From NCBI GenBank assembly GCA_023432025.1, contig JAEYVE010000083.1, positions 4,244 to 68,243 of the forward strand: DNA of 64,000 nt, read 5' to 3'. Source of the DNA: Pseudomonadota bacterium (GTDB lineage: Bacteria; Myxococcota_A; Polyangia; Polyangiales; Polyangiaceae). The first letter of the stretch is position 1. Each line of letters starts with the position of its first letter. Positions 20,713 to 64,000 of this stretch are shown in pieces. The notes below the pieces were generated by a model. The model searched no databases. It saw only the letters and a program-made list of their open reading frames with translations, and was not told the DNA's origin. A program made the translations under genes and the position numbers.

Positions 20713-20728
20713 TGGCACACGGGTTGCT
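20713..20728 (+). promoter_or_regulatory. Consensus sigma-54 (-24/-12) promoter
   Basis: TGGCACacgggTTGCT is an exact match to TGGCAC-N5-TTGCW. It sits in the 148-bp gap between the kinase stop (20596) and the response-regulator ATG (20745). Confidence 0.6.
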
Positions 20729-20744
20729 GAGTCCAGGGGACGCG

Positions 20745-21296
20745 ATGACTGCAATCAAGCGCCCACATGCCCTGGTCGTCGACGACGACCCGATTTCGCT
20801 CGAGGTCACCCGGCGCCGCCTCGAGGAGCTCGGCTTCGAGGTGGACGTGCGCGAGGACTCCCTCGGAACCTCGCGCTGGGTCCTCGAAAACCAGCCGGAC
20901 TTGGTGGTCCTGGACGTCATGATGCCGGCGCTCACGGGACCGGAGCTGGCCGCTGTGCTCAAGCGCAGCGCGCTCTGCGTGCAGATCCTGCTTCAGTCGA
21001 GCAAGCCGCAAGCCGAGGTGGAGCTCTTGGCGCGCTCGGTAGGGGCGCTCGGTGGTATTTCGAAGGAGCTCGGTGACGAGGCGTTCAAGGCGACGTTCGT
21101 GCGGCTCGCGCACCCGACGTGCGGCGCGAGCGTGGGCGCTCCCCTGACCGAGGGGAACGACGGTGGGGCCGAGGCGCCCGCCGCGGCGCGCGGTGGACGC
21201 GGTCAACGAAGCCAGCCCGCTTTCCAAGCGAGTGGCGCGCGGCTCGCGAGGGAGGACGACGACCGCCACGCCTCGGACCGAGGAGACGTGTCGTGA
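20745..21296 (+). CDS. Single-domain response regulator (REC only, plus a disordered C-terminal tail)
   Basis: HALVVDDDP...DLVVLDVMMPALTG carries the acidic pocket and the phospho-acceptor Asp. No output domain is present. ATG at 20745 within ORF 20550..21296. Confidence 0.8.
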   Translation: MTAIKRPHALVVDDDPISLEVTRRRLEELGFEVDVREDSLGTSRWVLENQPDLVVLDVMMPALTGPELAAVLKRSALCVQILLQSSKPQAEVELLARSVGALGGISKELGDEAFKATFVRLAHPTCGASVGAPLTEGNDGGAEAPAAARGGRGQRSQPAFQASGARLAREDDDRHASDRGDVS

Positions 21297-21307
21297 GCGC
21301 CCGCGCC

Positions 21308-22816: not shown

Positions 22817-22870
22817 CGCGCGGGGTCGCGTGGTACTGTCCTCGCGGGATCGCGAGGGGAGCTACGAACG

Positions 22871-29114: not shown

Positions 29115-29131
29115 CGATCGCCATCGGCGAT
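29080..29131. repeat. Perfect 26-bp tandem duplication spanning the 3' end of the GH30-like gene
   Basis: gcatcgtgacgatcgccatcggcgat occurs at 29080-29105 and again at 29106-29131 with no mismatch. Confidence 0.9.
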
Positions 29132-29158
29132 TGAGCTTGCCTCCTCGGGGACGCGCGC

Positions 29159-43428: not shown

Positions 43429-43842
43429 ACGTCTCGGGCAGCGGTGTCCGCGGCGCTCGGCGCTCGGCGCTGGTGCAAAGCATCGCCGGAGCGTGCGAGC
43501 GCGCGAGGCGAGGGGAGCCCATGCACCTGGGGGGCATTTCCACGGCGAGTCTCCCGAGGCGCCCGGCGTGACGTCTCGCCCGAGCCACGCGACGTGATTC
43601 GTAGAGGCCACGGCGGGGATCGCTGGCTCCCCAAGGCAGCGACGTACAGGGAGAAATGGACTGGGGAAAACTTGGTGAAACAGTTGTTTCGACCCCGTCA
43701 AAGTCGCGAATTTCTAAGGGGGAACAGAGAATTCAAGAATTTCCCCAGCGGACCGAAAGCCAAGACCATTTACTAGGTGGAAGCCTTCCAGATACTAGCT
43801 TGTTGCTACCTGGGCGAAGTGCCCTCGGTGGGCCGGAGCACC

Positions 43843-45261
43843 ATGACCAACGAGAGAAAGATCAGGGAAGGTTTTCTCCAGAATTACGCGTCGGTCGTGA
43901 CCTTGGGCCAGCGCCTGGTCGACGCGGTGCTGATCGTGGTTTCGCTCTACGTGATGGTCGGCGTTTACGACCAGCCGTGGCGTGAGCTCGAAACGATCGC
44001 CGCGTGCGTCGCGGTCATCGCCTTCTATTTGGTCTCCGAAATCAACGGACTGTATCGCTCCTGGCGAAACACGTCCGTGATTCAGGAGATCAGTCGGGCG
44101 CTTTTCACCTGGGGCTGCACCGCGATGCTCCTGCTCCTGGTCGCCTTCTCGCTCAAGCGCTCGGGGGACTTCTCCCGCGTCGTCAGCATCGGTTGGTTCG
44201 TGATCGTTCCCAACCTGATGATCGCGCTGAGGCTCGTGGTGCGCTTCGTGCTGCAGGAGCTACGCCGGCGCGGCCGAAACTCCCGCTCCGTCGTCATCGT
44301 GGGTATGACGCGTGTCGCGCAGCAGCTGGCGGATCACTTGCAAGATCCGGCGGCGGGCATGCGCCTGGTCGGCTTCTACGACGACCGCATTCCGTCTCGT
44401 CGCGAACAAATCACGGGCACCACGGCTGAATTCCGTGGCGGCTCGGACGCCCTGGTGCAGCACGTTCGCGAAGAAAAAATCGACTACGTCTACATCACGC
44501 TGCCTCTCCGCGCCGAAACGCGCATCAACGATCTGGTGCAGCGGCTCTCCGACACGACCGCGACCGTGATGGTGGTCGGAGACTTCTTCGTGTTCGACAT
44601 GCTGCACGCTCAGTGGTCCATGGTCGGAGACGTCCCCGTCGTCGCCATTTTGGACACGCCATTTCAGGGCTTGGGCGGGTGGATCAAGCGGCTCGAGGAC
44701 ATCGTCCTCAGCATTCTGATCCTGCTGCTCATTTCGCTGCCGATGCTGGTCATCGCCCTGCTCATCAAGCTGACGTCGGCGGGGCCGGTGTTCTTCGTGC
44801 AGCGCCGCTATGGCCTGAACGGCCACGAAATTCCGGTCATCAAGTTCCGCACCATGACGGTTCAAGAGGACGGAGCAGAAGTGCGTCAGGCCCAACAGGG
44901 CGACCGGCGCGTCACCAAGCTCGGCGCCTTCTTGCGCCGCACGTCATTGGACGAGCTGCCACAGTTTCTCAACGTGCTGGCCGGTCACATGTCCATCGTG
45001 GGTCCGCGGCCCCACGCCGTGGCGCACAACGAGCTCTATCGCTCGAAAATTCACCGCTACATGCTGCGGCACAAGGTGAAGCCGGGCATTACGGGGTGGG
45101 CGCAGGTCAACGGTTGGCGCGGTGAAACCGAGGCGCTCTACAAGATGGAAAAGCGTCTCGAGCACGACCTCTACTACATCCACAATTGGAACTTGCTGCT
45201 CGATCTCCGCATCATCTTCTTCACCGTTTTCGGTCGGAAGGTGCGGAGTAACGCGTACTGA
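43843..45261 (+). CDS. Polyprenyl-phosphate hexose-1-phosphate transferase (WcaJ/WbaP-type priming glycosyltransferase)
   Basis: N-terminal TM helices, then PVFFVQRRYGLNGHEIPVIKFRTM, DELPQFLNVLAGHMSIVGPRPH and PGITGWAQVNGWRG. Its GC content is lower than the window average. Confidence 0.9.
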   Translation: MTNERKIREGFLQNYASVVTLGQRLVDAVLIVVSLYVMVGVYDQPWRELETIAACVAVIAFYLVSEINGLYRSWRNTSVIQEISRALFTWGCTAMLLLLVAFSLKRSGDFSRVVSIGWFVIVPNLMIALRLVVRFVLQELRRRGRNSRSVVIVGMTRVAQQLADHLQDPAAGMRLVGFYDDRIPSRREQITGTTAEFRGGSDALVQHVREEKIDYVYITLPLRAETRINDLVQRLSDTTATVMVVGDFFVFDMLHAQWSMVGDVPVVAILDTPFQGLGGWIKRLEDIVLSILILLLISLPMLVIALLIKLTSAGPVFFVQRRYGLNGHEIPVIKFRTMTVQEDGAEVRQAQQGDRRVTKLGAFLRRTSLDELPQFLNVLAGHMSIVGPRPHAVAHNELYRSKIHRYMLRHKVKPGITGWAQVNGWRGETEALYKMEKRLEHDLYYIHNWNLLLDLRIIFFTVFGRKVRSNAY

Positions 45262-45376
45262 CGGCGAGGCCGCCGTCGAGGTAGCCCTGAACAAGCGCTC
45301 CGGCGGCCAAATCCGCGCGGGCGCGGGCGCCCGAACACCGTTGCCAGGCGACCTGCCTGTCTTGTAGGTAGGGCCG

Positions 45377-48300
45377 ATGACGTCGAGCGTATTGCCGGAT
45401 CAGCAGCGGAATTTGCTCGCTTGCCAGCTGGCGGCGGACGCACGCGCTTTTTCGGTCTGGGTGGCGCTTTCGCTCCGCGGCGCGGTCGACGTCCCACGGC
45501 TGGTGCGCGCCGTTCAGAAGGTGCGCCTCCGCCACACGGCGCTCCACGCCTACTTGGACGACGTCGTCGATCCTCCGAGCGTGCGCTTCGACGTGGAGGC
45601 AGCGAGCGCTCCGATCGAGGTCGTGAACGTTTCGGAGCAGTCGCTCTCTGACTGGCTCGAGTCGGGGCTCGGCGAACGCTTCGATCCGCGCGCGGCGTGG
45701 AGCCGGGTGCGCATCGGGCGCTTCGCGGACGAGAGCTACGGGCTCTTGATTGCGCTGCCTCGGGCGGCGTGTGACGCCGAGTCCACGGCGCTGCTGTACC
45801 GCGATCTCGTCCATGCCTACGACGATGAAGACGCGTCGTTCGGGAGCTCCTTGGCGGACTTCGTGACGGCGCGCGCGGTTTCCGAGAGCGCGGCGCTGGC
45901 GGACACGCTCGGGCGCCTTTCGGGAGAGCTGCCGCCCCTCGAGCTTCCGCTCGCCGCGCCGAGGCCGGCGCTCTTCTCCCATCGTGGCCGCACCGTGCGG
46001 CGCACGCTGGGAGCGGACACCTTGGCGGAGCTCGGCGTGCTTGCAGAGCGTCACGGCGTGCTCGTGGACGACGTCATTTTGACGGTCTTCTTGGCAACGC
46101 TGCAGCGCTACTCCAATCAAGAGGAGTTCGTCGTCGCGACCGCCGCCCGACCCACCGCGTGGGAAGGCGTCGGTCCCAACGAAACGGTGTGTGTGCTGCG
46201 CGCGTTCGTCGCGGCGACCACGTCGTTCGAAAGCGCGCTCTCGTCCGTCTCCGAGGCGGCTCGCGCAGCCCGCGTGAGCGCCGTCGTTTCGTTTCAGAGT
46301 CTGGTGGACGGGCTCTCCGTTTCCCGGGACCCGAGCCGCACGCCGCTCTTTCAGGCGGGCTTCGAGCGCGAGGCTCGCCTCCGCGCGCGGAGCGCCAAGG
46401 ACGGCGTGGTCTTCGAGCCCCTGCGGCTCTCCAACACGGGTGCGCGCACCGACTTGACGCTCCTCTTCTCGGAGGAAGAGGCAGGGCTCGAGCTAGCGCT
46501 CGAGTACGCCGAGGACTCGTATGCCGCGAGCTGGGCGGAGGACTTTTTGGGGAGCTGCGCCCTGGGCCTCACCGCGTGTAGCGCGCACGTCTCTGCGCCC
46601 ACGGGTCAGCTGCCGCTCCTCACCCCCGAGCAAACGGCGCTTGCGTTCTTGCCCTACGAGGCGCGCGCGTACGACGAAACCCAGCCCGCGTTCGTGCGGC
46701 TCGGGGAGCACGCAAGGCGCACGCCGGATCGCGTTGCCGTTCTCTTGGGTGAGCAGTCGCTCACGTACGCAGCGCTGGAGGAGAGCGCCAATCGACTAGC
46801 GCATCGCTTGCGTCGGCACGGCGTGGGGCCCGAGAGCTTGGTGGGCGTGTACTGCGAGCGGTCGCTGGACATGGTCGTGGCGCTCTTGGCGGCGCACAAG
46901 GCGGGCGGCGCGTACGTTCCGCTCGACCCGACGCATCCTCGGACGCGCGTCGAAGCCATTTTGGAGGACGCCGCGCCGCGCGTCGTCGTTACCCAGCGCG
47001 CGCTCCGCGCGCAGTGCCCGGTGTCGCCGGAAACCACGCTGATCGACGCGGACGCAGAAGACTTGGGCCAGGAGCCGGCGACCGCGCCGGAGCTCGACGT
47101 ACGCCCGGACGGGCTCGCTTACGTGATTTTCACCTCGGGCTCGACCGGGCGCCCCAAGGGCGTCGAAATCACGCACCGGGCGTTCACGAACTTCGTGCAC
47201 TCCATGGCGCACGCGCCGGGGCTCGCTCCGGAGGATCGCATCCTCTCGGTCACGACCTTGTCGTTCGACATCGCGGGCCTCGAGCTGCTCTTGCCCATCT
47301 ACGTAGGCGCGTCCGTGGAAATCGCGGATCGGCCGACGTGCATCAACGCGGAGCGCTTGGCTCAGCGCCTTTCGGATCCCGCCGTCACCTTGCTGCAAGC
47401 AACTCCGGCGACGTTCCGCATGCTCGTGGAGTCGGGCTGGCCGGGCAGCGCGCGCCTGCGCGTTCTGTGCGGCGGCGAGGCGTTCCCGCCGGATTTGGTG
47501 GACGCTCTCCTCCGTCGCACGTCCCAGGTGTGGAACATGTACGGGCCGACGGAGACCACGGTGTGGTCCACCTTGCAGCGCCTGACGGACGACAGACCGC
47601 CGATCCGCATCGGGCGGCCCGTGGACAACACCTCCATCTACGTTCTGAACCCGTGTGGGCAGCCCGTGCCGCGCGGTTCGATTGGTGAGCTGTGGATTGG
47701 CGGAGACGGCGTGGCGCGCGGCTATCGCGCGCGCCCCGACCTCACGGCGGAGCGCTTCATCACGGACGGTTTCCGGAGCGAGCCCGGGGCGCGCATGTAT
47801 CGCACCGGAGATCTCGGCCGAGTGCTCGCCGACGGCACGTTGGAGTGCCTGGGCCGCGTGGATTTTCAGGTCAAGATCCGCGGCTACCGCATCGAGCTGG
47901 GAGACATCGAGACAGCGCTCATGAAGGTGCCCGGCGTGCGGGAGGCCGTGGTCGTAGCGCGCGAGGATCGACCGGGGGACAAGCGTTTGGTCGCCTATTT
48001 CGTGGGCGACGCCACGCAGGCGACGCTGCGCGCGAGCCTCGGCGAGGTGTTGCCGTCGTACATGGTGCCAGCCGTCTTCGTGCCGATGGACGCGCTGCCG
48101 CTGAACCCGTCCGGAAAAATCGATCGCCGCGCGTTGCCGGTGCCCGCGGAGGCGCCGAGCGCCGCGCAAGAAGGGGTGGTCGAGGCGGTCAAGGACGACA
48201 CGGAGGCCACCATCCGCGCGGTGTTCGCCGACGTGTTGGGCGTGCCATCGGTGGACTCCACGTCGAGCTTCTTCGACATGGGCGGTACGTCGCTCATGTC

Positions 48301-49198
48301 GGTCAAGCTCGCGCAGAAGCTCGAGGCTGCGCTCGGCGCCAAGGTGCCTCTGGGGCTCTTGTTCGAGGCGCCGACGGTGCGCGGCTTGGCCGAAGCGCTC
48401 GGTGGGCAAGCCTCTCTGCACGCGCGACCGCGCGTAGTGGTGCTCCGTCGCGGCACGTCGGACGAGGCGCTCTTCTGCGTGTACGGTGTGGCGCTCTATC
48501 AGCACGTGGCGCGCTCGCTTCCCGAGCACCTCACCGTGTACGGGGTGTTCATCCCCACGGAAACCGAGATTTTCGAGCAAGAAAAGCTGCAAAAGGGGGA
48601 TTTTTCGTTCCCCGGTGTGGCCGAGCTCGCCAGGCAGTACGTCAGCATCATGACGGAGGTGCAGCCGAAGGGCCCTTACCGCGTGATGGGCATCTCCTTC
48701 GGCGGGCTGGTGGCCTACGAAATCGCGAGGCAGCTGCGCGCTCTCGGGCAAGAAGTCGTGTTCCTGGGCCTCTTGGACGCGCTGCTTCCGAGCTCCATCC
48801 AGGAGTCGGGCCTTCGGCGTTGGGGTCGTCAGCTCAAGACCTTCGTCGCGGACGCGGACGGGCGTCAGGTGGTGCTTCGGGCGCTGCGCGCCAAGGTGGG
48901 GCGCGTGTCGCCTGAGCCCTTCTCCGAGCGGCAACTGACCTGGCTGCGCGACAGGGTTCATGACCAACAAATCGCTCACTACGCCAAGGAGCTGCCGGAC
49001 TACCCGGGGGACGCGGTCATCGTTCGCGCCACGGATCACTCCGAGTACGGGACGGCCGTCGTGGACGCAGGCGCCGGGTGGCGCGAGCGCGTTCGAGGCA
49101 GCGTAGCCGAGTACGACGTGCCCGGGCGACACCTCGAAATCGTGGAGCCACCGAGCTCGGACATTTTGGCGAAAATGCTGAGCGCGCACCTCGCGTGA
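45377..49198 (+). CDS. Single-module NRPS: condensation-like domain (degenerate active site), A (Gly-predicted), PCP, TE
   Basis: A-domain cores are LTYAALEE, LAYVIFTSGSTGRPKGV, SFDIAGLE, NMYGPTETT, YRTGDL, GRVDFQVKIRGYRIELGDIE and NPSGKIDR. The PCP motif is FFDMGGTSL and the TE motif is GISFGG. The C-domain His motif reads LPRAACDAES instead of HHxxxDGxS. Confidence 0.95.
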   Translation: MTSSVLPDQQRNLLACQLAADARAFSVWVALSLRGAVDVPRLVRAVQKVRLRHTALHAYLDDVVDPPSVRFDVEAASAPIEVVNVSEQSLSDWLESGLGERFDPRAAWSRVRIGRFADESYGLLIALPRAACDAESTALLYRDLVHAYDDEDASFGSSLADFVTARAVSESAALADTLGRLSGELPPLELPLAAPRPALFSHRGRTVRRTLGADTLAELGVLAERHGVLVDDVILTVFLATLQRYSNQEEFVVATAARPTAWEGVGPNETVCVLRAFVAATTSFESALSSVSEAARAARVSAVVSFQSLVDGLSVSRDPSRTPLFQAGFEREARLRARSAKDGVVFEPLRLSNTGARTDLTLLFSEEEAGLELALEYAEDSYAASWAEDFLGSCALGLTACSAHVSAPTGQLPLLTPEQTALAFLPYEARAYDETQPAFVRLGEHARRTPDRVAVLLGEQSLTYAALEESANRLAHRLRRHGVGPESLVGVYCERSLDMVVALLAAHKAGGAYVPLDPTHPRTRVEAILEDAAPRVVVTQRALRAQCPVSPETTLIDADAEDLGQEPATAPELDVRPDGLAYVIFTSGSTGRPKGVEITHRAFTNFVHSMAHAPGLAPEDRILSVTTLSFDIAGLELLLPIYVGASVEIADRPTCINAERLAQRLSDPAVTLLQATPATFRMLVESGWPGSARLRVLCGGEAFPPDLVDALLRRTSQVWNMYGPTETTVWSTLQRLTDDRPPIRIGRPVDNTSIYVLNPCGQPVPRGSIGELWIGGDGVARGYRARPDLTAERFITDGFRSEPGARMYRTGDLGRVLADGTLECLGRVDFQVKIRGYRIELGDIETALMKVPGVREAVVVAREDRPGDKRLVAYFVGDATQATLRASLGEVLPSYMVPAVFVPMDALPLNPSGKIDRRALPVPAEAPSAAQEGVVEAVKDDTEATIRAVFADVLGVPSVDSTSSFFDMGGTSLMSVKLAQKLEAALGAKVPLGLLFEAPTVRGLAEALGGQASLHARPRVVVLRRGTSDEALFCVYGVALYQHVARSLPEHLTVYGVFIPTETEIFEQEKLQKGDFSFPGVAELARQYVSIMTEVQPKGPYRVMGISFGGLVAYEIARQLRALGQEVVFLGLLDALLPSSIQESGLRRWGRQLKTFVADADGRQVVLRALRAKVGRVSPEPFSERQLTWLRDRVHDQQIAHYAKELPDYPGDAVIVRATDHSEYGTAVVDAGAGWRERVRGSVAEYDVPGRHLEIVEPPSSDILAKMLSAHLA

Positions 49199-49331
49199 GG
49201 AGCACGCGCAGCCTTCGCGTCGTGGCCCTCGCGTCGCGGTCCTCGCGCTGTGGCCCGTCGCCCCATAGCCGGCGCTTTCGAGTGCCGATGCGCGAAGGGG
49301 TGGCGCGCCCCTAACAAGGGCGCTTTCCTCT

Positions 49332-49383
49332 CGAACGGCCGCGGGCGCGGCGCCGTTCAAACGGCCGCGGGCGCGGCGCCGTT
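49332..49383. repeat. 26-bp tandem duplication (25/26 identical) spanning the stop codon of the minus-strand membrane glycosyltransferase gene
   Basis: c[g/a]aacggccgcgggcgcggcgccgtt occurs at 49332-49357 and 49358-49383. The stop codon (tca on the plus strand, 49357-49359) sits at the copy junction. Confidence 0.85.
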
Positions 49384-50622
49384 GTCGGGGCGAGCGCGAA
49401 GCGCTCCGCGCGCGTCGCGCAGCCACGCGCCACACGTGAGAAGCACCAGAAGGAGCGTGAAGACGGGCCCGAGCGTTCCGACGCCCAGCTTGTCGCCGAG
49501 CACGGGTGCACGCGACGCGAAGGCGACCAAGAGGACGATGCTTGCGCCGAGCCAGCCGGGGCGCAGCGTGTAAGCCGCGAAGACGAGCGGCGTGAGAATG
49601 ACCAGATCGTAGCCATGGAGCGGCACGAACGCGGCGGTGAGCGCGCAAGCGATGGCCGCGTGCCACAGCGGGCTCACGAGCTCGGGAGCTCGCTGCTGGC
49701 GCAGCCGGAAGTGGACCGCCGCGAAGCCCAGCGCTAGCAGCGGGCCAAACAGCAAAGTGACGGACGCGAGCGGCCCGAGGCTGGCCAGCAAGGACGAAAG
49801 GCTGAAGAACTCGCCGGGCGCGTTGAAGCCGATGTCCATGTGCAGCCGGTAGCTCTCTGCGAGCTGTGCGGGGAGCTCGCCGAGGTCGACGTGGATGAGC
49901 GCAATGGCCGTGACGAGCAGTGTGGCGAGAGCGCCGCGCACGACGCCCCGAAACCCGCCCAAGAGGCACAGATACGCGAGCGGGAGAAAACCAATCTGCG
50001 GCTTGAGAGCCGCCAAGAAGGCAAACGCGGCCACCCAGTTGTCGCGCTTTTGGTGCCACGCCCAGAACGCGCCGACGACGCCCAAGAGGGGCACCATGCA
50101 CATTTGCCCCTCGAAAAACGTCCAGCGGACGGCCCCGTTCGCGGTGGCGGCCGCGACGACGAGCCACACCCCCGGATCACGAAGCGAGAAGCTTTGGCTC
50201 TGGCGGAGCCAGCGCAGCAGGATGAACAGGATGCCTGCGTAGGAGGCGACGTTCACCAAGTCCCACAGGCGGCAGGCGAGGGGCCAGTTGGCGAGCCCGA
50301 GCGGCACCGCGAAGAACGCCATGTGCGGCGGGTACATGTACGGCGCCGTGGGCGGGGTGATTTCGCTGGGCGTGGCGCCGAGGAACGACGGATGCACGTG
50401 CACCCATTGGCCACGCCACGCGACCACGTCGTACGGCACGACGCCCGTCAGCCACGTTTTCCCTGCAGCGTAGACGAACGCAAAGTCACTCCAGCCGCGC
50501 ACGAGATCCTTCAGCGGCAGGAGCGAGTAGAGCGTGACGACGACCGTCACCAACGCGGCGAGCGGGAACGCCCAGCGACGTTCGGCGGCGTCGGCGAATC
50601 GTTCTCGAAGGGAACCAAGCAT
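49357..50622 (-). CDS. Polytopic membrane glycosyltransferase-like protein (GT87/DUF2029-like)
   Basis: About 10-12 TM helices. The N-terminal loop motif SDFAFVYAAGKTWLTGVVPYD matches the D..xY.A......G..(L/P)Y pattern of GT87/DUF2029 proteins. Confidence 0.55.
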   Translation of the reverse strand: MLGSLRERFADAAERRWAFPLAALVTVVVTLYSLLPLKDLVRGWSDFAFVYAAGKTWLTGVVPYDVVAWRGQWVHVHPSFLGATPSEITPPTAPYMYPPHMAFFAVPLGLANWPLACRLWDLVNVASYAGILFILLRWLRQSQSFSLRDPGVWLVVAAATANGAVRWTFFEGQMCMVPLLGVVGAFWAWHQKRDNWVAAFAFLAALKPQIGFLPLAYLCLLGGFRGVVRGALATLLVTAIALIHVDLGELPAQLAESYRLHMDIGFNAPGEFFSLSSLLASLGPLASVTLLFGPLLALGFAAVHFRLRQQRAPELVSPLWHAAIACALTAAFVPLHGYDLVILTPLVFAAYTLRPGWLGASIVLLVAFASRAPVLGDKLGVGTLGPVFTLLLVLLTCGAWLRDARGALRARPDNGAAPAAV

Positions 50623-50733
50623 GCGCGGACTCTACTCGAAGGGGGTCGCGTAGCAGAGAGCACTGGGGAAGGTGTTGCGCAGGAGATACCGCGTAGGGTC
50701 AACAGAGCCTGGGGCAACACGTGCGTTGCGCGC

Positions 50734-51774
50734 TCAGGCGCTGACGCTTTTGTACTCGATGATGGTGCGCGTTCGGCGGAAGGCCAGATCCAAGAACGCT
50801 CGAACCACGCCGCGCAGCTCGACGAACTTTCCGAGCACGCAGGCGGTAGCGTACGACCGTGCGACGTCGGGAGGCAAAGCACGCGCCCCGCGCAGGTACC
50901 GGTACGTCTTCACCCAGAGCAGCGGGTAGAGCAAGAGCCCCAAAAACGCGCTCGGCCCCACGATCGGGCTCGAGAGCGCGAGCGCGAGCGGCAGGCCTCC
51001 CCAGCACACGATGGAAGCCACCTGTCGAACCCAAATGCGCCGCGGGCTCCGCAAGTGGAGGGCGCAGACGAGCGCAAACGCATAGCCGGCGCGCTCGACT
51101 CGTTTCCACCACTGCGCGCGGTGCGTCATGGCGGCGTCGTGCAGCGTCATTTCGTGATCGAGCCGCACGATGCGACGACCGGTGGCGCGGATGCGGTGAC
51201 AGAGCTCGGGCTCCTCACCGGCAATGACGGTCGGGTTGAAGCCGCCGACCTCGTCGAACACCGAAGCCACCACCAGAAAATCACCGCCACACGCCGTGGC
51301 TTCACCGAGGGGAGTGTCCCATTCGACGTCACACAAGCGGTTGTAGAGGCTCGCCTCCGGAAAGCGTTCGCGCCGCCGCCCGCACACGATGGCCCAGTCG
51401 GAGTGGCGCTCGAGCTCCCGTTGGGCGACCGCGAGCCATCCGGCGTTCAGCTCGCAGTCCCCGTCGATGAATTGCACGAAGGCAACCCCGGGCGCCACCT
51501 TCCGCAAGAGCTCGAACCCGGCATTTCGGGCGCGCGCGGCACTGAAGGGGATGCTCATGTCGAGCGCGACGACGTGGGCGCCCTCCGCGCGCGCGTACGC
51601 CGCGCTGCCGTCCGTGGAGCCCGAATCCACGTAGACGACGGTCGACGCGTTCTGCTGCACGCTGGCCAAGCAGCGTTTCAGCCGCTCGCCCTCGTTTCTG
51701 CCGATGACGACGACTGCTACCGACGGATGCGGACCATCGTTCGGAGGTTCTGCGTTCGAAGATTCTGCGTTCAT
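50734..51774 (-). CDS. Family 2 glycosyltransferase with C-terminal TM helices
   Basis: VAVVVIGRNEGERLKRCLASV, VVYVDSGSTDGS, ARNAGF and FIDGDCEL (DxD) are present. ATG at 51774 within ORF 50734..51873. Confidence 0.8.
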   Translation of the reverse strand: MNAESSNAEPPNDGPHPSVAVVVIGRNEGERLKRCLASVQQNASTVVYVDSGSTDGSAAYARAEGAHVVALDMSIPFSAARARNAGFELLRKVAPGVAFVQFIDGDCELNAGWLAVAQRELERHSDWAIVCGRRRERFPEASLYNRLCDVEWDTPLGEATACGGDFLVVASVFDEVGGFNPTVIAGEEPELCHRIRATGRRIVRLDHEMTLHDAAMTHRAQWWKRVERAGYAFALVCALHLRSPRRIWVRQVASIVCWGGLPLALALSSPIVGPSAFLGLLLYPLLWVKTYRYLRGARALPPDVARSYATACVLGKFVELRGVVRAFLDLAFRRTRTIIEYKSVSA

Positions 51775-52012
51775 TCGAGGCGCTCGGGGCGCGACCATAC
51801 CACGGGGGCTGCGCCTTCGAGGGTGCCTTCCGAAAGAGCGCGGATCGTCCGGCGACGCGCGTTGGGGCAACACCTGGCTGCCCCGTTTTTGGGGGAACCG
51901 AAGAGCTGGTTTCGTGGGGCGGGCGCAGGTGGGCCTGCCTGGCGGTGAACCGCTCGCCGCTCTAGGGTTCTCGTCGTCGTGGGCGACGACGTGCCCCGAC
52001 AGAACTCCGACG

Positions 52013-53308
52013 ATGCCTACGCTGCCTCAGGATCCCATTCGACCGCCGTTGCGTGTCGCTTACCTCGTCAATCACTACCCCAAGGTGAGCCACAGCTTCA
52101 TCCGGCGTGAAATCCTGGCGTTGGAGAGACAGGGCGTGGAGGTCGAGCGAATTTCCGTGCGCGGCGCGGGCGACTCCCTCGTGGATCCGGAGGACCAGAG
52201 GGAGCAACGGCGCACGCGCTACGTGCTCGCGCGTGGTCCGCTCTATTTGCTTTGGGCAGCGTTCGTTTTCGCGCTGCGCCGGCCCGGCAAGGCGCTGTCG
52301 GGTTTGCGCCTCGCGCTGGCTTTGTCCCGCCGCTCGGATCGCTCGCTCGCGCATCATTTGATTTACCTCGCGGAGGCTTGCCTCGTCGTGTCGTGGCTGG
52401 CGCGCGCGCGCGTCACGCACCTGCACGCGCACTTCGGAACGAACCCTGCGGAGGTGGCGCTCTTGATTCACGCGCTCGGCGGGCCGTCGTTCAGCTTCAC
52501 CGTGCACGGCCCGGAAGAGTTCGACAAGCCGGAGTTTCTGGCGCTAAAGCGCAAGATCGAGCACGCGCGCTTCGTCGTCGCGATCAGCTCGTATGGTCGT
52601 AGCCAGCTGTCGCGCTGGATTGATCCTCTCGACTGGAAAAAGATCCAAATCGTGCACTGCGGCTTGGAGCCGGCCTTCCACGAGCTCCCCGCCCAAGCCG
52701 TGCCGCCCGCGCCGCGCTTCGTTTGTGTGGGTCGCCTCTGCGAGCAAAAGGGACAGCTCGTGGCGCTCGAGGCCGTGGCGCTCTTGAAGCAGCGCGGCGT
52801 GGCCTGCGAGCTGGTGCTCGCCGGAGACGGAGAAATGCGGCAGGCCGTCGAGCAGCGCCGTGACGAGCTGGGCATCGGTGATCGCGTGCGTATCACGGGC
52901 TGGCTCTCGAGCTCGGCCGTGCGCGACGAAATCTTGGCGTCGCGTGCGCTCGTCATGCCGAGCTTCGCAGAAGGGCTCCCCGTGGCCATCATGGAGGCGA
53001 TGGCGCTCAGGCGCCCGGTCGTGTCCACGTACGTCGCGGGCATTCCCGAGCTGGTGCGTCCTGCGCTGGAAGGTTGGCTCGTGCCGGCCGGAGACGTGGC
53101 GGCGTTGGCCGAGGCGATGGAACGCGTGGCCACGGCCGCGCCGGACGAGCTGGAGCGTATGTCGGCTTCGGCGCGTAGCCGCGTTCTGCAGCGGCACGAC
53201 GTGGACCAAGAAGCGACGCGGCTCCGGCTCTTGTTCTCGGGGCAGTCGCCGGCAGCTCGTACGTGGGACGACCCGCCGAAACCGGACGAAAACGTCTTCG
53301 CCGCGTGA
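52013..53308 (+). CDS. GT-B fold glycosyltransferase (GT4, WcaL-like)
   Basis: RVAYLVNHYPKVSHSFIRREI at the N-terminus, and a C-terminal E-x7-E region PSFAEGLPVAIMEAMALRRPVVST. ATG at 52013 within ORF 51704..53308. Confidence 0.85.
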   Translation: MPTLPQDPIRPPLRVAYLVNHYPKVSHSFIRREILALERQGVEVERISVRGAGDSLVDPEDQREQRRTRYVLARGPLYLLWAAFVFALRRPGKALSGLRLALALSRRSDRSLAHHLIYLAEACLVVSWLARARVTHLHAHFGTNPAEVALLIHALGGPSFSFTVHGPEEFDKPEFLALKRKIEHARFVVAISSYGRSQLSRWIDPLDWKKIQIVHCGLEPAFHELPAQAVPPAPRFVCVGRLCEQKGQLVALEAVALLKQRGVACELVLAGDGEMRQAVEQRRDELGIGDRVRITGWLSSSAVRDEILASRALVMPSFAEGLPVAIMEAMALRRPVVSTYVAGIPELVRPALEGWLVPAGDVAALAEAMERVATAAPDELERMSASARSRVLQRHDVDQEATRLRLLFSGQSPAARTWDDPPKPDENVFAA

Positions 53309-53339
53309 CGCGGCGGACTGCGCTTGCTGGGCGCCTGGC

Positions 53340-54332
53340 TCAGCTCGCTCGAAACTGCTCGAGGAGTCGGCGCGCCGCGGAGGTGGGCGCTACCTGGCCC
53401 TCGCGCACCTCGGTTTCCACGGCATCGAGACGAGACGCCACGCTCGGGTGCTCCCGAAACTGACTTTCGAGCTCGGCCCGCACCAGGTCCCAGAGCCACG
53501 CGAGCGCTTGCTCGCGGCGCTTGTCGTGAAAAGCGCCGGAGCGCTTCGCCGAGTCGACGAAACGCTCCACGCGGGCCCACAGCTCCGGAAGGCCGGTCTT
53601 GGACAGCGCGCTCAGCGTGAGCACCTCGGGGGCCCACGTGTGCTCGCCGACGCTCCGCGTGGCGCCGAAGAGGCGCAGCGCGCCTTCGAGCTGTGACACC
53701 GCGCGGCGCGCCGCGGATTCGTCCAAGTCAGCCTTGTTGACGACGATGAGGTCGGCGAGCTCGACCACGCCCTTTTTCATCGCCTGCAGGTCGTCTCCGG
53801 CGTTGGGCAGCTGCAGCAGCAAGAAGAGATCCGTCATCGTCGCGACGGCCGTCTCCGACTGCCCCACGCCGACCGTCTCGACCAGTACGACGTCGTAGCC
53901 GGCAGCTTCGAACGCCAGCATGCTCTCTCGCGTTTTGGCGGCGACGCCGCCCCACGTGCCCGCGGACGGGCTCGGGCGGACGAAAGCGGCGGGGTGCACG
54001 CTGAGCTGCTCCATGCGTGTTTTGTCGCCCAAAATGGCGCCGCCGGAGCGGGCGGACGAGGGATCGATGGCAAGAACGGCGACCTTGTGCCCGCGCTCGA
54101 CCAACCACAAACCGAACGCCTCGATGAACGTGGATTTGCCGGCGCCCGGCACGCCCGACACGCCGATGCGGAGCGACTTGCCCGAGTGCGGCGTGAGCAG
54201 TGCGAGCACCGCGTCTGCCCGCTTTCGATGATCCGCGCGGGTGGACTCGAGCAGCGTCACGACCTTGGACAGGGCGCGCCGCTCTCCGCGCAAAACGCGC
54301 GCGGCGAGCTCGGAGTCGGAAGGCTGCGTCAC
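53340..54332 (-). CDS. meaB: Methylmalonyl-CoA mutase-associated GTPase MeaB/ArgK
   Basis: GVSGVPGAGKSTFIEAFG, AIDPSSARSGGAILGDKTRM, ETVGVGQSE and VVNKADL are present. Confidence 0.9.
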   Translation of the reverse strand: MTQPSDSELAARVLRGERRALSKVVTLLESTRADHRKRADAVLALLTPHSGKSLRIGVSGVPGAGKSTFIEAFGLWLVERGHKVAVLAIDPSSARSGGAILGDKTRMEQLSVHPAAFVRPSPSAGTWGGVAAKTRESMLAFEAAGYDVVLVETVGVGQSETAVATMTDLFLLLQLPNAGDDLQAMKKGVVELADLIVVNKADLDESAARRAVSQLEGALRLFGATRSVGEHTWAPEVLTLSALSKTGLPELWARVERFVDSAKRSGAFHDKRREQALAWLWDLVRAELESQFREHPSVASRLDAVETEVREGQVAPTSAARRLLEQFRAS

Positions 54333-54336
54333 GGGC

Positions 54337-56526
54337 TCAGCCTTCCGTGAGGTGCTCTCGGATGCGCGCGAGCACGTCTTTTGCGCTCGCCGGAATGGGC
54401 GTGCCCGGACCGTAAATGCCCTTCACGCCCGCTGCGTACAGCTCCGCGTAGTCCTGCTGGGGAACGACCCCACCCACGAACACGACGATGTCCTCGGCGC
54501 CTTCGCGGCGCAGCGCTTCGAGCAAAGCGGGGACGAGCGTCTTGTGGCCGGCGGCGAGGGTGCTGACGCCGATGGCGTGCACGTCGTTTTCGATGGCCTG
54601 GCGCGCGCACTCTTCGGGCGTTTGAAAGAGCGGCCCGATGTCCACGTCGAACCCGAGATCCGCGAACGCGGTGGCCACGATTTTGGCGCCGCGATCGTGA
54701 CCGTCCTGACCCAGCTTGGCGACGAGCACGCGCGGCTGGCGGCCTTGCTCTCGGGCGAAGGTCGCGATTTCTCCGCGGAGTTGGTCGAGACCTTCGGGCG
54801 TGTCGTAAGCCGTGGCGTACACTCCGGTCACCTTCTGCGTATTGGCGCGGTAACGGCCATAAACCTCTTCGAGCGCGGCGCTGACCTCACCTACGGTAGC
54901 GCGGCTCCGCATGGCCACGATCGAGAGCTCGAGCAGGTTGCCGCTGCCGCTCTCGGCGGCTCGCGTGAGGGTCGCGAGCGCCTCTTCGACGGCTTTTCCG
55001 TCGCGGCTCCGGCGGAGCTCAGCCAAGCGTTCGATTTGGCTGCGGCGCACGGCGTGGTTGTCGATCACGCGCACGTCGATTTCGTCTTCCTCAGCGAGCT
55101 TGTACTTGTTCACGCCGACGATGACGTCCTTGCCGGAGTCGATGCGCGCCTGCTTTTCCGCGGCGCTGGCTTCGATCTTGAGCTTGGCCCAGCCGGTCTC
55201 GACGGCGCGCGTCATGCCGCCCAGTCGGTCGACTTCCGCGATGATTTCCCAGGCTTTGTCGGCCATGTCCTGCGTGAGCCGCTCCATCATGTAGCTGCCC
55301 GCCCACGGGTCCACGACGCTCGTGATGTGGGTTTCCTCTTGCAGGATGAGCTGGGTGTTGCGAGCGATGCGCGCGCTGAACTCGGTGGGCAGCGCGATGG
55401 CCTCGTCCAGCGCGTTGGTGTGAAGGCTCTGCGTGCCGCCGAAGATGGCCGCCATCGCCTCCACCGTGGTGCGCACCACGTTGTTGTACGGGTCCTGCTC
55501 GGCCAAGCTGAAGCCCGACGTTTGGCAGTGCGTGCGCAGCATCAGGCTCTTGGGGCTCTTGGCCCCGAACTCCGTCATGATTTTCCACCAGAGCAGACGC
55601 GCCGCGCGCATCTTGGCGATCTCGAGGTAGAAGTTCATGCCGATCGCCCAAAAGAAGCTGAGGCGCCCGGCGAACGCGTCCACGTCCAGCCCCTTGGCGA
55701 GGGCAGTCTTCACGTACTCCTTGCCGTCCGCCAAGGTGAGCGCAAGCTCCAGCGCTTGGTTCGCGCCGGCTTCGTGCATGTGGTAGCCGGAGATCGAAAT
55801 CGAGTTGAACTTCGGCAGCTCTTTGGCGCAGTACTCGATGATGTCGCCCACGATGCGCATGGACGGCGCAGGCGGGTAAATGTACGTGTTTCTGACCAAA
55901 AACTCCTTGAGAATGTCGTTCTGAATCGTGCCGGAGAGCGCGCGTCTTTCGACGCCCTGCTCCTCCGCGGCCACGATGTAAGAAGCCAGCACGGGCAAGA
56001 CCGCGCCGTTCATCGTCATCGACACCGACACCTTGTCGAGCGGGATCCCGTCGAACAGGACCTTCATGTCGAGCACGCTGTCTATCGCAACGCCCGCCTT
56101 GCCGACGTCGCCTTCCACGCGCGGGTGATCGCTGTCGTAGCCGCGGTGCGTGGCCAAATCGAACGCCACGCTCACGCCTTGGCCGCCGGCGGCCAGCGCC
56201 TTTCGGTAGAAGGCGTTGGACGCTTCCGCCGTGGAGAACCCCGCGTACTGACGCACGGTCCACGGGCGCACCGTGTACATCGTGGCTTGTGGCCCGCGCA
56301 CGTACGGGGGAAAGCCCGGCAGCGTGTCGATGTGCTCGAGCCCTTCGACGTCCGCCCGCGTGTAGAGCGGATGCACGACGATGCCCTCGGGCGTGACCCA
56401 GTCGAGCGCTTCGAGCTTTCCGCCGGGCGCTGACTTTTGGGCGGCGGCCCGCCACGTTTCGATGGACTCGGAGCTCGGAAGTTCGGTTTTCGACATCGAT
56501 TGCTTGGCTCGTTCGTTGGCGGCCAT
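54337..56526 (-). CDS. Methylmalonyl-CoA mutase, single-chain catalytic subunit with a B12-binding domain
   Basis: [57 protein letters not shown], and a C-terminal [15 protein letters not shown] (DxHxxG). Confidence 0.95.
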
Positions 56527-56740
56527 AGCGTTCGGCCCTGGTTCTGGACAAGGTGGAACGCCGGCGCGACCTAACCGACCTGTTTCCCCGTTCGAGTGGC
56601 CCCCAGGCCGCCCACCGTCCTATCTTCGCGCCCTTGGCTAAGCCTTCGGTTTGACTACATTGTCGTAGCTCGGCTGTCGCGCTCTATTTCGTTTCATTCG
56701 AGTCGCGTCCGCACGTCCGCGCCCCTACGGAGAATCATCG

Positions 56741-57610
56741 ATGTCGTCATTCGTTTGCGCACTGATGGGTCAGGGACCTCAGCTGATTGCCTGCGCGGAG
56801 GTCCTGCTCGCGCGAGGCCACCGCATCTCTCGCGTCGTGTCGGACTGTGCGGAGGTCACCGCCTGGACGCAGAAGAAGGGCCTCGCGCGCATCGGGACGA
56901 AGGAAAACCCCGCCGATTCGCTGGCGCAGGAGCCGTTCGACTACTTCTTCAGCATCGTCAACCACGCCATCACGCCGCCCGAGGTGCTCGCGCTGCCACG
57001 CCGGGGCGCCATCAATTATCACGACTCACGTTTGCCCGCGTACAGCGGCTTCAACGCCACGTCGTGGGCCATTTTGGACGGTCAAAGCGAGCACGGCATC
57101 ACCTGGCACCGCATGACGGCGGACGTCGACGCGGGCGCGGTGCTCGTGCAGCGCACCTTCGCCATCGGCGACGAGGACACGGCATTTGCGCTCGCGGCTC
57201 GTGCGAGCGAGGTGGCGGTGCGTTCCTTCGGGGAGCTCCTGGACGGGTTGGAAAAGGGGTCGCTCGTCGAGGAGCCGGCCCGTCCAGCCGAAAACTTCCA
57301 CTTCAAGTCGGAGCGCCTCGGCTTTTCCGTCGTGGATCCGCGTGCCACGACGCTCGAAATCCAGCGTTTGGTGCGTGCCTTGGACTTCGGTCCCGAGGAG
57401 AGCTGGCTGAGCCGCCCCAAGCTGCAAACGCCCAGCGGCGCCTTCATCGCGGTGGGCGCCGTCGCCCCCGGCTCCTCTCACGGCGCCCCGGGCACGCTTC
57501 ACCGCGCCAGCGCCGAGGCCCTCGAGCTTTCCGTCGCGGACGGCAGCCTGGTTTTGTCCGATTTGGCGACGCTCGAAGGCGAGCCGCTCTCGGCGGAGCA
57601 GCTCGGTGCT
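56741..57610 (+). other. Formyltransferase-like domain of the NRPS (aa 1 to about 290)
   Basis: AINYHDSRLPAYSGFN (NxH...LPxxxG) with Asn92/His94, and Asp130 in TADVDAGAV, at the same spacing as the Fmt catalytic Asn/His/Asp. Confidence 0.75.
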
Positions 57611-62617: not shown

Positions 62618-62677
62618 GCCCCGGACCAGAACCTCACGCCGGGACCGCGCGCCCCGGTCCGCCCTCTCGTGCACGTC

Positions 62678-64000
62678 ATGGAACCAAAGAACACCGAGCC
62701 CACGTCTGCGCCGAATGAAGGCGCATCGGATGAGTCCCTGGACATCGCCATCGTCGGTATGGCGGGCCGCTTCCCCGGCGCCAAGAACATCGACGAGTTC
62801 TGGACCAATCTGGTTTCGGGCAAGGAGTCCATCCGCGTCCTCACGGACGAGGAGCTACTGCGAGCGGGCGTTCCGCGCCGCGAGTTCGAGCACCCCGACT
62901 ACGTGCGGGCGTGTCCGGTGCTCGAGGACATCGACAAGTTCGACGCAGCCTTCTTCGGCTTGAGCCCGCGCGACGCGTCCGTGATGGACCCGGCGCACCG
63001 CTTCTTCTTGGAGGTGGCGTGGGAGGCGCTCGAGCACTCAGGCAACACGGGTTTGCCCCAAGAGGGGCGCGTGGGCGTGTGGGCGGGCTCCGGCGCGCCG
63101 CTCTACTGGATGAACAACGTCCGCACGCACCGCGAAATCATGGAGTCCATGGGGGAGTTCCTCGTTCGCCACACCGGCAACGACATGAACTTCCTGGCGA
63201 CGCGCGCGTCCTACGATCTGGATCTGCGCGGTCCGAGCGTAAACGTGCAGACGGCGTGCTCGTCGGCGCTCGTGGCGGCGCACATGGCGCGTCAGAGCCT
63301 CTTGGCGCGGGAGTGCGACATGGCGCTCATCGGCGGCTCGACCATCGTCGTGCCGATGGGCCACGGCTACCACTACAAGGAGGGAGAGATTCTCTCACCG
63401 GACGGCCACTGCCGCCCCTTCGATCACAGGAGCGCCGGCACCGTCTTCGGCAGCGGCACGGCGTGCCTGGTGCTGAAGCGCCTCACGGACGCGCTGGACC
63501 ACGGCGACACCATCTACGCCGTCATCAAGGGCTCGGCCATCAACAACGACGGCTCCGTCAAGGTGGGGTACCTGGCGCCGGGCGTGGAAGGGCAAGTGGA
63601 CGCCATTCGAGAGGCGCTCAAGGCGTCGCGTCTCTCGGCGCGCGACATCGGCTACGTGGAGGCGCACGGCACCGGTACCAGCGTGGGCGACCCCATCGAG
63701 CTCACGGCGCTCGATCAAGCGTTCTCCGAGCAAACGTCGGACAAGCAGTTCTGCGGCGTCGGTTCGGTCAAGTCGAACATTGGCCATTTGGGAGAGGCGG
63801 CCGCGGGTGCCTCGTTGATCAAGGTGGCGCTCGCGCTGAAGAACAAAAAGATCCCGCCGAGCCTCGGCTACGAAAAGCCGAACCCGCGCTTCCCGCTGGA
63901 GGAGAGCCCGTTTTTCGTGAATGCCAGCTTGCGTGAGTGGGACGGCGACGGTCGCCCGCTGCGCGCCGGCATCACGGCGCTCGGCGCCGGCGGCACGAAC
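62678..64000 (+). CDS. Type I polyketide synthase, N-terminal ketosynthase domain (3'-truncated by the window edge)
   Basis: The frame is open from ATG 62678 to the window end and is not listed in the ORF track. Motifs are DIAIVGMAGRFPGA, PSVNVQTACSSALVA (Cys codon 63257-63259), VEAHGTGTSVGDPIE and SVKSNIGHLGEAAG. Confidence 0.9.
   Translation, partial: MEPKNTEPTSAPNEGASDESLDIAIVGMAGRFPGAKNIDEFWTNLVSGKESIRVLTDEELLRAGVPRREFEHPDYVRACPVLEDIDKFDAAFFGLSPRDASVMDPAHRFFLEVAWEALEHSGNTGLPQEGRVGVWAGSGAPLYWMNNVRTHREIMESMGEFLVRHTGNDMNFLATRASYDLDLRGPSVNVQTACSSALVAAHMARQSLLARECDMALIGGSTIVVPMGHGYHYKEGEILSPDGHCRPFDHRSAGTVFGSGTACLVLKRLTDALDHGDTIYAVIKGSAINNDGSVKVGYLAPGVEGQVDAIREALKASRLSARDIGYVEAHGTGTSVGDPIELTALDQAFSEQTSDKQFCGVGSVKSNIGHLGEAAAGASLIKVALALKNKKIPPSLGYEKPNPRFPLEESPFFVNASLREWDGDGRPLRAGITALGAGGTN

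Follow-up and report, generated by a model that had tools for sequence, protein, structure and literature searches.

The DNA studied here is a stretch of 64,000 nucleotides (hereafter the window) of contig JAEYVE010000083.1 from a bacterium of the Polyangiaceae, with a GC content of 68% over the entire 64 kb, and in its last 20 kb enzymes of sugar-chain synthesis stand mixed with nonribosomal peptide synthetases (NRPSs) and a polyketide synthase (PKS). In the order of the sequence (Table 1) the nine genes code for a WcaJ-type priming transferase (PGT), a first synthetase (NRPS1), a GT87 membrane glycosyltransferase (GT), two further GTs of the families GT2 and GT4 (GT2a and GT4a), the GTPase chaperone MeaB, methylmalonyl-CoA mutase (MCM), a second synthetase (NRPS2) and the PKS, whose gene is cut by the window end. 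Genes were called by a caller based on the GC content of third codon positions (GC3) together with Pfam and cross-checked against the gene calls of the source record itself, and by both all nine genes stand in the order and on the strands that an initial annotation of the sequence had given them. The proteins of PGT and NRPS2 match with 100% the proteins of the 162-kb ENA record ERZ28599081, LEMO22-1_SAMN17062630_METAG-scaffold_22, of which the window represents approximately positions 46410-110409, and the part of this record fetched around NRPS2 (L088) provides the rest of the PKS and the genes that follow it.

As revealed by Pfam and NCBIfam, NRPS2 is composed of a formylation (F) domain, a linker of ~260 aa, an adenylation (A) domain that is interrupted first by a monooxygenase (MOx) and then by a methyltransferase (MT), and a peptidyl carrier protein (PCP). 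The MOx insert, at residues 793-1147, is a luciferase-like monooxygenase (Bac_luciferase/TIGR04020) which sits between the motifs A4 (FDxS) and A5 (the TP..R motif), the MT lies in the C-terminal subdomain, and in some homologues the linker still scores as what is left of a Condensation domain. The motif of the F domain reads HDSRLPAYSG. At the code positions, taken from established knowledge, the A domains of NRPS1 and NRPS2 both read DILQLGMVWK, which is a glycine code, in agreement with the glycine specificity previously assigned to the two enzymes; the earlier description of NRPS2 as F-A(Gly)-PCP is right for these three domains and has to be completed by the MOx and the MT carried within the A domain. 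NRPS2 has no thioesterase (TE), and the PKS comes next.

The full PKS in L088 has 2191 aa and a single module, with the order ketosynthase (KS), acyltransferase (AT), ketoreductase (KR), dehydratase (DH), carrier protein (CP) and TE. The motifs of KS, AT (GHSMGE) and KR are intact and the carrier is PCP-like, while the nucleophile of the TE is a Cys (GLCAGG; L088 21500-22500, window-equivalent ~68240-69240), a feature limited to the subfamily that contains the MT, since the MT-less subfamily has Ser instead (GFSGGG or GYSGGG). A second GT2 (GT2b), which has no hydrophobic segment and is soluble, begins 19 bp after the PKS in the source contig; a 366-aa open reading frame (ORF) comes next, and then a second GT4 (GT4b). 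This ORF (L088 23727-24827) and its seven homologues have a lipoprotein signal and find no match in Pfam or NCBIfam; their family profile gives in the PDB a weak match to the uncharacterised 4i8i (E = 1.7e-4) together with marginal matches to GDSL lipases, and it is mainly because of the invariant GHSL...G...DxxH motifs that we assign them as SGNH-like. Judged from these motifs, they may form a new SGNH-like family.

Full-length orthologues of GT2a are found at 43-51% identity in 8 loci anchored by NRPS2 and at 50-52% in loci of Methylobacterium/Methylorubrum, and those of GT4a at 39-52% in about nine NRPS2-anchored loci and at 44% in Methylorubrum salsuginis, so that by their orthologues both GTs are members of the same cassette as NRPS2. 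Several cytoplasmic GTs, as a Wzx/Wzy cluster has them, are thus present, namely GT2a and GT4a in the window and GT2b and GT4b downstream. The C-terminal hydrophobic segment of GT2a is conserved in its family and suggests a topology like that of ArnC, GtrB or Dpm1; against NCBIfam the protein gives a weak match to the polyprenyl-phospho-GalNAc synthase PpgS, and sequence searches of the PDB gave one weak partial match for GT2a and no matches for GT2b and GT87. Altogether the conserved core of the cassette is GT2a, GT4a, NRPS2 and the PKS, plus GT2b, the SGNH-like lipoprotein and GT4b past the window end, and NRPS2 is its signature enzyme.

Recurrence of the NRPS2-PKS pair among sugar-chain genes

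Homologues of NRPS2 with the same architecture are numerous (~70 full length, 49-69% identity), and a shorter form of ~1550 aa without the MT domain follows at 41-46% identity; their hosts are Polyangiales, 'Deltaproteobacteria', Hyphomonas/Hyphomonadaceae, Vicinamibacterales and Methylobacterium. A scan of metagenomes with NRPS2 gave 80 loci, of which 40, the source included, have the F domain and the MOx-interrupted A domain. The ORFs in the flanks were clustered de novo and Pfam was run on the cluster representatives. Among these 40 loci the recurrent families are the PKS (32), a phosphopantetheinyl transferase (PPTase; 19), the GT2b type (15), GT4 (10), the GT2a type (9), the SGNH-like ORF (8), Wzx, WecG and PGT (7 each), Wzy_C (6), and a Wzz-like protein, a deacetylase and an epimerase (4 each). 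When the source is left out, the same PKS is present in 31 and the PPTase in 19 of 39 independent NRPS2 loci from Polyangia, Hyphomonadaceae, Methylobacterium and Vicinamibacterales, at least one GT, PGT, Wzx or Wzy gene in 25 of them, and at least two of these kinds in 17. A Wzx flippase is found in at least 7 cassette loci other than the present one and Wzy_C in 6, and the Wzz-like proteins of a few related loci are the only finding there that relates to the Wza/Wzc type. The link between NRPS2-PKS and glycan genes is accordingly frequent and not universal.

The annotated gene orders agree with this. The genes of NRPS2, PKS and GT2 overlap in locus L089, and in L173 a GT2 gene ends 19 bp upstream of NRPS2, which is then followed by the PKS; in L090 the genes of a PPTase, a GT4, Wzx and Wzy_C precede NRPS2-PKS-GT4, and in L091 Wzx lies between NRPS2 and PKS in the order PPTase, NRPS2, Wzx, PKS. 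In L174 a ten-gene glycan operon with WecG, GT4, deacetylase, GT2, GT4, GT61, PPTase, DegT and GT2 faces NRPS2-PKS. Moreover, Methylobacterium sp. 88A has the series UDP-sugar dehydrogenase, DegT, GT4, epimerases, NRPS, PKS and Wzz-like protein, and Methylorubrum salsuginis the series Wzx, GT2 (50% to GT2a), PGT, GT4 (44% to GT4a), oxidoreductase, GT2, MT and NRPS. We also observed genes related to MprF beside NRPS2-PKS in two close relatives, one in each, coding for LPG_synthase_C (L173 6842-7909) and LPG_synthase_TM (L174 24060-25055), which hints at a lipid-linked or aminoacylated product.

To compare these flanks with a background, 125 random flank ORFs from 33 loci of the family were set against 73 flank ORFs from 17 control loci, which are loci of the same scan with MOx-type NRPSs without the F domain. 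The family flanks hold 14 GT2, 13 PPTase, 4 Wzx, 4 WecG, 3 PGT and 3 GT4, and the control flanks 2 GT4, 1 PGT, 1 WecG and at most one GT2; counted together, glycan domains (GT, PGT, Wzx) make up 28 of 125 ORFs in the family and 4 of 73 in the controls (Fisher p = 0.0013).

These results bear directly on the question whether the NRPS/PKS and the GT clusters are unrelated and stand together by chance, or in an integration hot spot, in the variable sequence that follows a conserved PGT. Such an explanation leaves three things unaccounted for: NRPS2-PKS recurs across phyla beside genes of GT2, GT4, Wzx, Wzy and PPTase, often in translational coupling with them; glycan genes are enriched over the control loci; and GT genes come directly after the PKS here. 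For the region as a whole we hold it to be very improbable, although for the PGT-NRPS1 pair alone it is, as shown below, the favoured account. In the same way the proposal of two adjacent unrelated clusters, made in the initial annotation, is contradicted by the many unrelated loci in which genes of GT2, GT4, Wzx, Wzy_C, PGT, WecG and PPTase again surround NRPS2-PKS. The opposite proposal, that all GT and NRPS/PKS genes form one locus, applies to NRPS2, PKS, GT2a, GT4a and the downstream GTs and does not extend to the PGT-NRPS1 pair or to MeaB/MCM. Synteny in relatives, which had been named as the check, divides the genes likewise: NRPS2-PKS with GT genes recurs, and the placement of PGT-NRPS1, GT87 and MeaB/MCM does not. 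The region is neither a single pathway nor a pair of unrelated clusters; it is a mosaic with one genuine functional unit at its centre.

The same loci allow another view of the unit, in which the acid made by NRPS2-PKS is glycosylated by GT2b or other GTs to a free or cell-associated glycoside, with the Wzx-type protein of the MOP group as its exporter and the EPS-like genes co-opted or only co-located. This would agree with GT2b being soluble and more tightly coupled to the megasynthases than any other gene, as its type directly adjoins NRPS2 or PKS in 13 of 15 cases, with close relatives such as L089 and L173 that have only GT2b beside the pair, and with the PKS having a releasing TE of its own. 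Nevertheless many loci add PGT, Wzy_C, Wzz, WecG, sugar-nucleotide enzymes and polysaccharide deacetylase, which point to an undecaprenyl-linked polymer, and we therefore consider a small glycoside unlikely. The occurrence of NRPS2-PKS among sugar-chain genes, both here and in many unrelated bacteria, rather suggests an undescribed decorated surface sugar polymer.

Genes around the core

PGT matches the WcaJ model TIGR03023 of NCBIfam at 528 bits (cutoff 411) and is thus an initiating polyprenyl-phosphate glycosylphosphotransferase, as a Wzx/Wzy cluster has one. Its orthologues, at 55-88% identity, occur in many metagenome-assembled genomes of Polyangiaceae/Sorangiineae, by which the host is most likely one of the Polyangia, and its identity to the PGTs of other cassette loci is only 37-48% over a partial length, to which it is not orthologous. 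The neighbours of PGT differ in every relative examined. In the relative with 88% identity it is followed by genes of a hexapeptide acetyltransferase, of FHA and kinase proteins, by rmlABCD and by a GT87 gene 9 kb from PGT, with no NRPS, and in the relative with 74% identity neither GT nor NRPS is found within 10 kb. Among the GTDB species representatives, a scan with PGT as the anchor gave 12 loci of Polyangia (51-79% identity), and in none of the 12 are orthologues of NRPS1, GT87, MeaB, MCM or the upstream genes present. In the two closest GTDB relatives, L008 and L009, the place immediately 3' of PGT is taken by another cluster, at distances of 10 and 47 nt.

This cluster (L008 11429-17748, L009 7679-17627) consists of an alpha/beta hydrolase, a protein with the order fatty acyl-AMP ligase (FAAL), acyl carrier protein (ACP), KS, AT, ACP and aminotransferase, and an NRPS of condensation (C) and A domains; from its domains it would be an iturin-like loader of a beta-amino fatty acid, of the lipopeptide type. 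The slot 3' of PGT varies and is perhaps a hot spot for biosynthetic clusters. PGT itself is conserved in Polyangia while its neighbours change; it did not come with the cassette, whose glycan it could still prime.

That PGT stands before NRPS1 had been singled out as an unusual layout with a possible meaning. The pairing is not conserved: NRPS1 is found in 0 of the 12 Polyangia PGT loci and is also missing in the 88% relative, and the orthologues of NRPS1 lie elsewhere. For this pair alone chance adjacency is the most likely explanation, in line with the changing neighbours of PGT, with the different FAAL-PKS-NRPS cluster that two relatives have in the same slot, and with NRPS1, GT87 and MeaB/MCM occurring in no related locus; the PGT-NRPS1 junction is probably incidental. 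In the spacer between the two genes no terminator-like or sigma-70-like site was found by a scan of low power here, in line with co-transcription of PGT and NRPS1 as well as with separate transcripts.

The lower GC noted before is true of the PGT gene, whose 0.612 is the minimum of the window and among the lowest 0.2% of windows of the same size; the spacer between PGT and NRPS1 has a GC of 0.73. A foreign origin of PGT was considered on this ground and rejected, as GC3 is normal (0.83, as in the neighbours) and the orthologues are alike. Because only the first and second codon positions are low (GC1 0.62 and GC2 0.38) and the orthologues in L008 and L009 have the same pattern over the three positions, the low GC reflects the amino-acid composition of a membrane protein. 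Two observations upstream of PGT may be added here. A eukaryote-type UDP-sugar pyrophosphorylase (PF01704; 40433-41611, minus strand) lies 2 kb upstream and is not syntenic in relatives, and the transglutaminase-like gene upstream of PGT contains three tandem copies of the 12-nt unit GCTCCCGGGTCC (43039-43086).

In NRPS1 the glycine code of the A domain is joined by the intact motifs GGTS of the PCP and GISFGG of the TE, and the A domain matches DltA models of NCBIfam below their cutoffs. The C domain lacks HHxxxDG and reads PRAACDA at this position, where PGAACDG is found in P0001, HRIGCDT in P0006 and HHIIADE in dimodular relatives. Because a catalytic C domain is missing, NRPS1 can only load glycine and off-load it by its TE. 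It is also different from the EntF type, as the catalytic HHxxxDG is absent and no partner aryl or acyl carrier protein with its ligase is found in the window. P0001 (53%) and P0006 (48%) are the only orthologues found, all other relatives having a different architecture (a HMMER search with the C* domain gave a list swamped by multi-module megasynthases, whose scores are summed over several C domains). The gene of one orthologue has a lactonase gene on one side and an MscS channel gene on the other, and that of the second, in L005, comes after those of AsnB, an AMP-ligase and an ORF of 80 aa and before GNAT, GT4 and OafA-like genes; none occurs in any PGT-anchored or NRPS2-anchored locus. A recent duplication of cassette parts was rejected as the source of NRPS1, since its PCP-TE is 29% identical to that of the PKS and its A domain 41-50% to the NRPS2 family. 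NRPS1 appears to be a rare, locus-specific add-on with a degenerate C domain.

DltABCD, which D-alanylates, and the Vibrio system AlmEFG, which adds glycine to lipid A, both use an adenylating enzyme that loads an amino acid on a carrier for a surface glycoconjugate. They serve as the working analogy for NRPS1 (with glycine in AlmE), which has likewise an adenylating A(Gly) domain and a carrier with intact motifs, and by this analogy an aminoacylated glycan is a possible role; the glycine would possibly be put on the same product as the cassette's acyl group, as a glycyl ester or amide. Unlike these systems NRPS1 is a fused C*-A-PCP-TE protein, and neither a DltB-type MBOAT protein nor an AlmG acyltransferase is encoded adjacent to it. 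An MBOAT-family O-acyltransferase similar to AlgI/DltB is encoded 32 kb upstream (11367-13109, minus strand) and is the sole candidate envelope acyltransferase in the window.

GT87 has ~7 hydrophobic segments and lies 111 nt downstream of GT2a on the same strand, and the two are probably in one operon. No homologue of GT87 is found in the 39 cassette loci, and it is tied to the cassette only locally, because GT2a-GT87 resembles the pairs of a polyprenyl-phosphate-sugar synthase and a GT-C enzyme. Such pairs are ArnC/ArnT and GtrB/GtrC, to which GT2a (~340 aa, C-terminal hydrophobic segment) and the multi-pass GT87 on the same strand correspond; moreover, the formyl handling and the polysaccharide deacetylase of some cassette copies recall ArnA and ArnD. 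In sequence GT2a differs from ArnC and GtrB, with weak matches only and no relative in the PDB, and GT87 is missing in the other cassette loci. A 26-nt tandem duplication (49331-49382, 96% identical), which may be a recombination scar, extends across the GT87 stop codon in the convergent gap with NRPS1.

MCM is well assigned, with 1260 bits against the equivalog model NF006944 (cutoff 876), and MeaB and MCM are absent from all 39 related cassette loci. Because the AT of the PKS looks malonyl-type, methylmalonyl-CoA is not evidently needed, and the supply of a methylmalonyl extender by MeaB/MCM was rejected both for this AT motif (GHSMGE) and for the lack of MCM in the 39 loci. The two genes are probably a housekeeping passenger.

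Known relatives and the possible product

The catalytic motifs are intact in NRPS2, in the PKS and in the A, PCP and TE domains of NRPS1, and the domain content, the active-site motifs, the coupling of the genes and their co-occurrence across phyla are read directly from the loci. With somewhat better than even confidence we lean to the reading that a Wzx/Wzy-type surface glycan bears a small acyl group which is derived from N-formyl-glycine and made by NRPS2-PKS, and that the NRPS2-PKS-GT unit of the window is the local copy of a cross-phyla cassette. More tentatively, and with rather less than even confidence, this can be widened to a cross-phylum and as yet undescribed class of hybrid glycoconjugates, in which the acyl unit is put on a sugar by the PKS TE and, in the present genome, a glycyl group is added by an NRPS with a dead C domain.

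The order of the steps, the acyl product and its transfer to sugar, what the MOx does and any part that NRPS1 or PGT may play we infer as follows. NRPS2 would adenylate glycine and load it on its own PCP, where the F domain would N-formylate it and the MOx and the MT may hydroxylate and methylate it; the PKS would then add one malonyl unit, reduce it and dehydrate it. The residue could be 4-formamidobut-2-enoyl (C5H5NO2, ~111 Da), heavier by 16 or 30 if it is hydroxylated or methoxylated. By its Cys nucleophile the TE of the PKS would hand the N-formyl-amino-acyl chain over to an oligosaccharide linked to undecaprenyl diphosphate, where one of the sugars, in all probability an amino sugar, would accept it; this oligosaccharide the priming transferase and the GT2 and GT4 enzymes would have made. 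In other copies of the cassette Wzx would flip this unit and the Wzy_C protein polymerise or ligate it, while GT2a, similar to polyprenyl-phosphate-sugar synthases, and GT87 would attach a periplasmic side branch, and moving or trimming of the acyl group may be the task of the SGNH-like lipoprotein.

Several points weigh against this picture. No Wzx, Wzy or PPTase gene is seen in the source contig up to record position 119026, and the visible flanks of 11 of the 39 loci, several of them short contigs, hold no glycan gene. The links of PGT and of NRPS1 with the cassette are adjacency in one contig. The acceptor of the TE is purely a supposition, and the product and function of every cassette member are read from sequence alone. 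Furthermore, the MOx of MtaG and MelG releases an amide and does not decorate a starter, and the single PKS module could act iteratively and make a longer chain.

The last point leads to a different product. An iterative PKS working on the formyl-glycyl starter would give a longer unsaturated chain, which would be the reducing-end anchor of the glycan, or its aglycone, as proposed for WcbR/RkpA. The PKS is in fact mono-modular, with KR before DH and no enoylreductase, an order known from iterative synthases, and genes for the MprF-related LPG_synthase_C and LPG_synthase_TM adjoin the pair in two loci. Type I PKS genes, wcbR and rkpA, are moreover known within capsular-polysaccharide clusters (PMC3908369). 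On the other side, KpsMT-type ABC export genes and domains of a WcbT/RkpG-type partner are seen neither in the window nor in L088 nor in the recurrent flank families, and several loci have with PGT already a lipid-linked primer, so that we give the supposed iterative use and a lipid anchor or primer little credence.

Compared with the small acyl decoration that we favour, the systems of WcbR (Burkholderia wcb) and RkpA (Sinorhizobium rkp-1) are nevertheless close to the cassette, since each has a mono-modular type I PKS in a polysaccharide locus and a product thought to reach the glycan; here likewise a KS-AT-KR-DH-CP-TE protein is flanked by GT genes. Their clusters are capsule loci with ABC transporters (group 2-like) and a WcbT/RkpG partner and have no NRPS, whereas the PKS of the cassette receives its starter from an F-A(Gly, MOx)-PCP synthetase, has a TE at its end and is surrounded by genes of the Wzx/Wzy type.

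NRPS2 itself has two kinds of relatives. MtaG, MelG and CtaG of myxothiazol, melithiazol and cystothiazole have like NRPS2 a luciferase-like MOx between A4 and A5 of a glycine A domain. They are the terminal modules of long assembly lines, in which the MOx triggers the release of the amide. NRPS2 is in contrast a loading module behind an F domain, often interrupted by an MT as well and followed by a single PKS module, and it does not close an assembly line in the arrangement C-A(MOx)-PCP-TE. The other kind is found in LgrA (linear gramicidin), OzmO (oxazolomycin) and conglobatin, where an F domain with intact HxSxLPxYxG comes before A-PCP; in the OzmO type formyl-glycine is handed to a PKS. 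The cassette shares with OzmO and conglobatin the F-A(Gly)-PCP loader and differs from them in having a single PKS module instead of a long assembly line, no cyclodehydratase seen for an oxazole, and genes of glycan synthesis as neighbours.

Thus the single parts, namely F-A-PCP loaders, MOx-interrupted glycine A domains and Wzx/Wzy genes, are of known kinds, and it is their fixed combination that appears new; no published account of the cassette was found in full-text literature searches. Annotation, mining and study normally treat polysaccharide clusters and NRPS/PKS clusters separately, and genome-mining tools would label such a locus as an orphan 'NRPS-PKS hybrid' beside a 'saccharide' cluster. 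If the decorated glycan proves true, it would be a new chemical route to decorate bacterial surfaces, which might influence their charge, phage receptors, immune recognition and the properties of the biofilm matrix, and it would give a role to a large family of enzymes with doubly interrupted A domains. The cultured carriers in Methylobacterium and Methylorubrum, such as Methylobacterium sp. 88A (GCA_000376345.1), Methylobacterium sp. BTF04 and Methylorubrum salsuginis CGMCC 1.6474, would then be tractable organisms for testing it.

Layout of the window

Table 1. Features of the last 20 kb of the window and of the source record past the window end
Feature	Position	Strand	Evidence
PGT, WcaJ-type polyprenyl-phosphate hexose-1-phosphate transferase, 472 aa	43843-45261	+	Pfam CoA_binding_3 + Bac_transf
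PGT-NRPS1 spacer, 115 nt	45262-45376		gene coordinates
NRPS1, C*-A(Gly)-PCP-TE, 1273 aa	45377-49198	+	Pfam
GT87/DUF2029 membrane glycosyltransferase, GT-C type	49357-50622	-	Pfam GT87
GT2a, 346 aa	50734-51774	-	Pfam Glycos_transf_2
Divergent intergenic region, GT2a (-) / GT4a (+)	51775-52012		gene coordinates
GT4a, 431 aa	52013-53308	+	Pfam Glycos_transf_1/Glyco_trans_1_4
MeaB GTPase chaperone	53340-54332	-	Pfam MeaB, E = 9e-108
MCM, methylmalonyl-CoA mutase, 729 aa, catalytic and B12-binding domains	54337-56526	-	NF006944
Divergent intergenic region, MCM (-) / NRPS2 (+), GC 0.62	56527-56740		gene coordinates
NRPS2, F-A(Gly; MOx, MT inserts)-PCP, 1958 aa	56741-62617	+	Pfam, NCBIfam
PKS 5' part, gene cut by window end	62678-64000	+	Pfam; KS-bearing; full length from L088
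PKS 3' end	window-equivalent 69253	+	source record L088
GT2b	window-equivalent 69272-70312 (beyond window)		source record L088
SGNH-like lipoprotein	window-equivalent 70467-71567 (beyond window)		source record L088
GT4b	from window-equivalent 71696 (beyond window)		source record L088

Among the ORFs of the window scanned with Pfam, which are a part of all ORFs, no Wzx, Wzy or Wza was found, in agreement with the initial annotation, and neither an outer-membrane export protein nor a co-polymerase of the Wza/Wzc type is seen in the window. A scan of 43300-57000 for promoters and terminators gave nothing beyond the shuffled expectation, and no consensus promoter was detected in the divergent region between GT2a and GT4a; searches for tRNA genes and repeats as borders of an island found none. 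The 43 kb upstream hold housekeeping and signalling genes. Within them, positions 29114-31861 have a GC of ~0.72 and no ORF that passes the filter on GC by codon position, and a dense signalling block at 14065-24841 combines a HAMP histidine kinase, a GAF-GGDEF protein, a 7TM-PAS histidine kinase, a histidine kinase with Hpt (HK-Hpt) and a sigma-54 activator.

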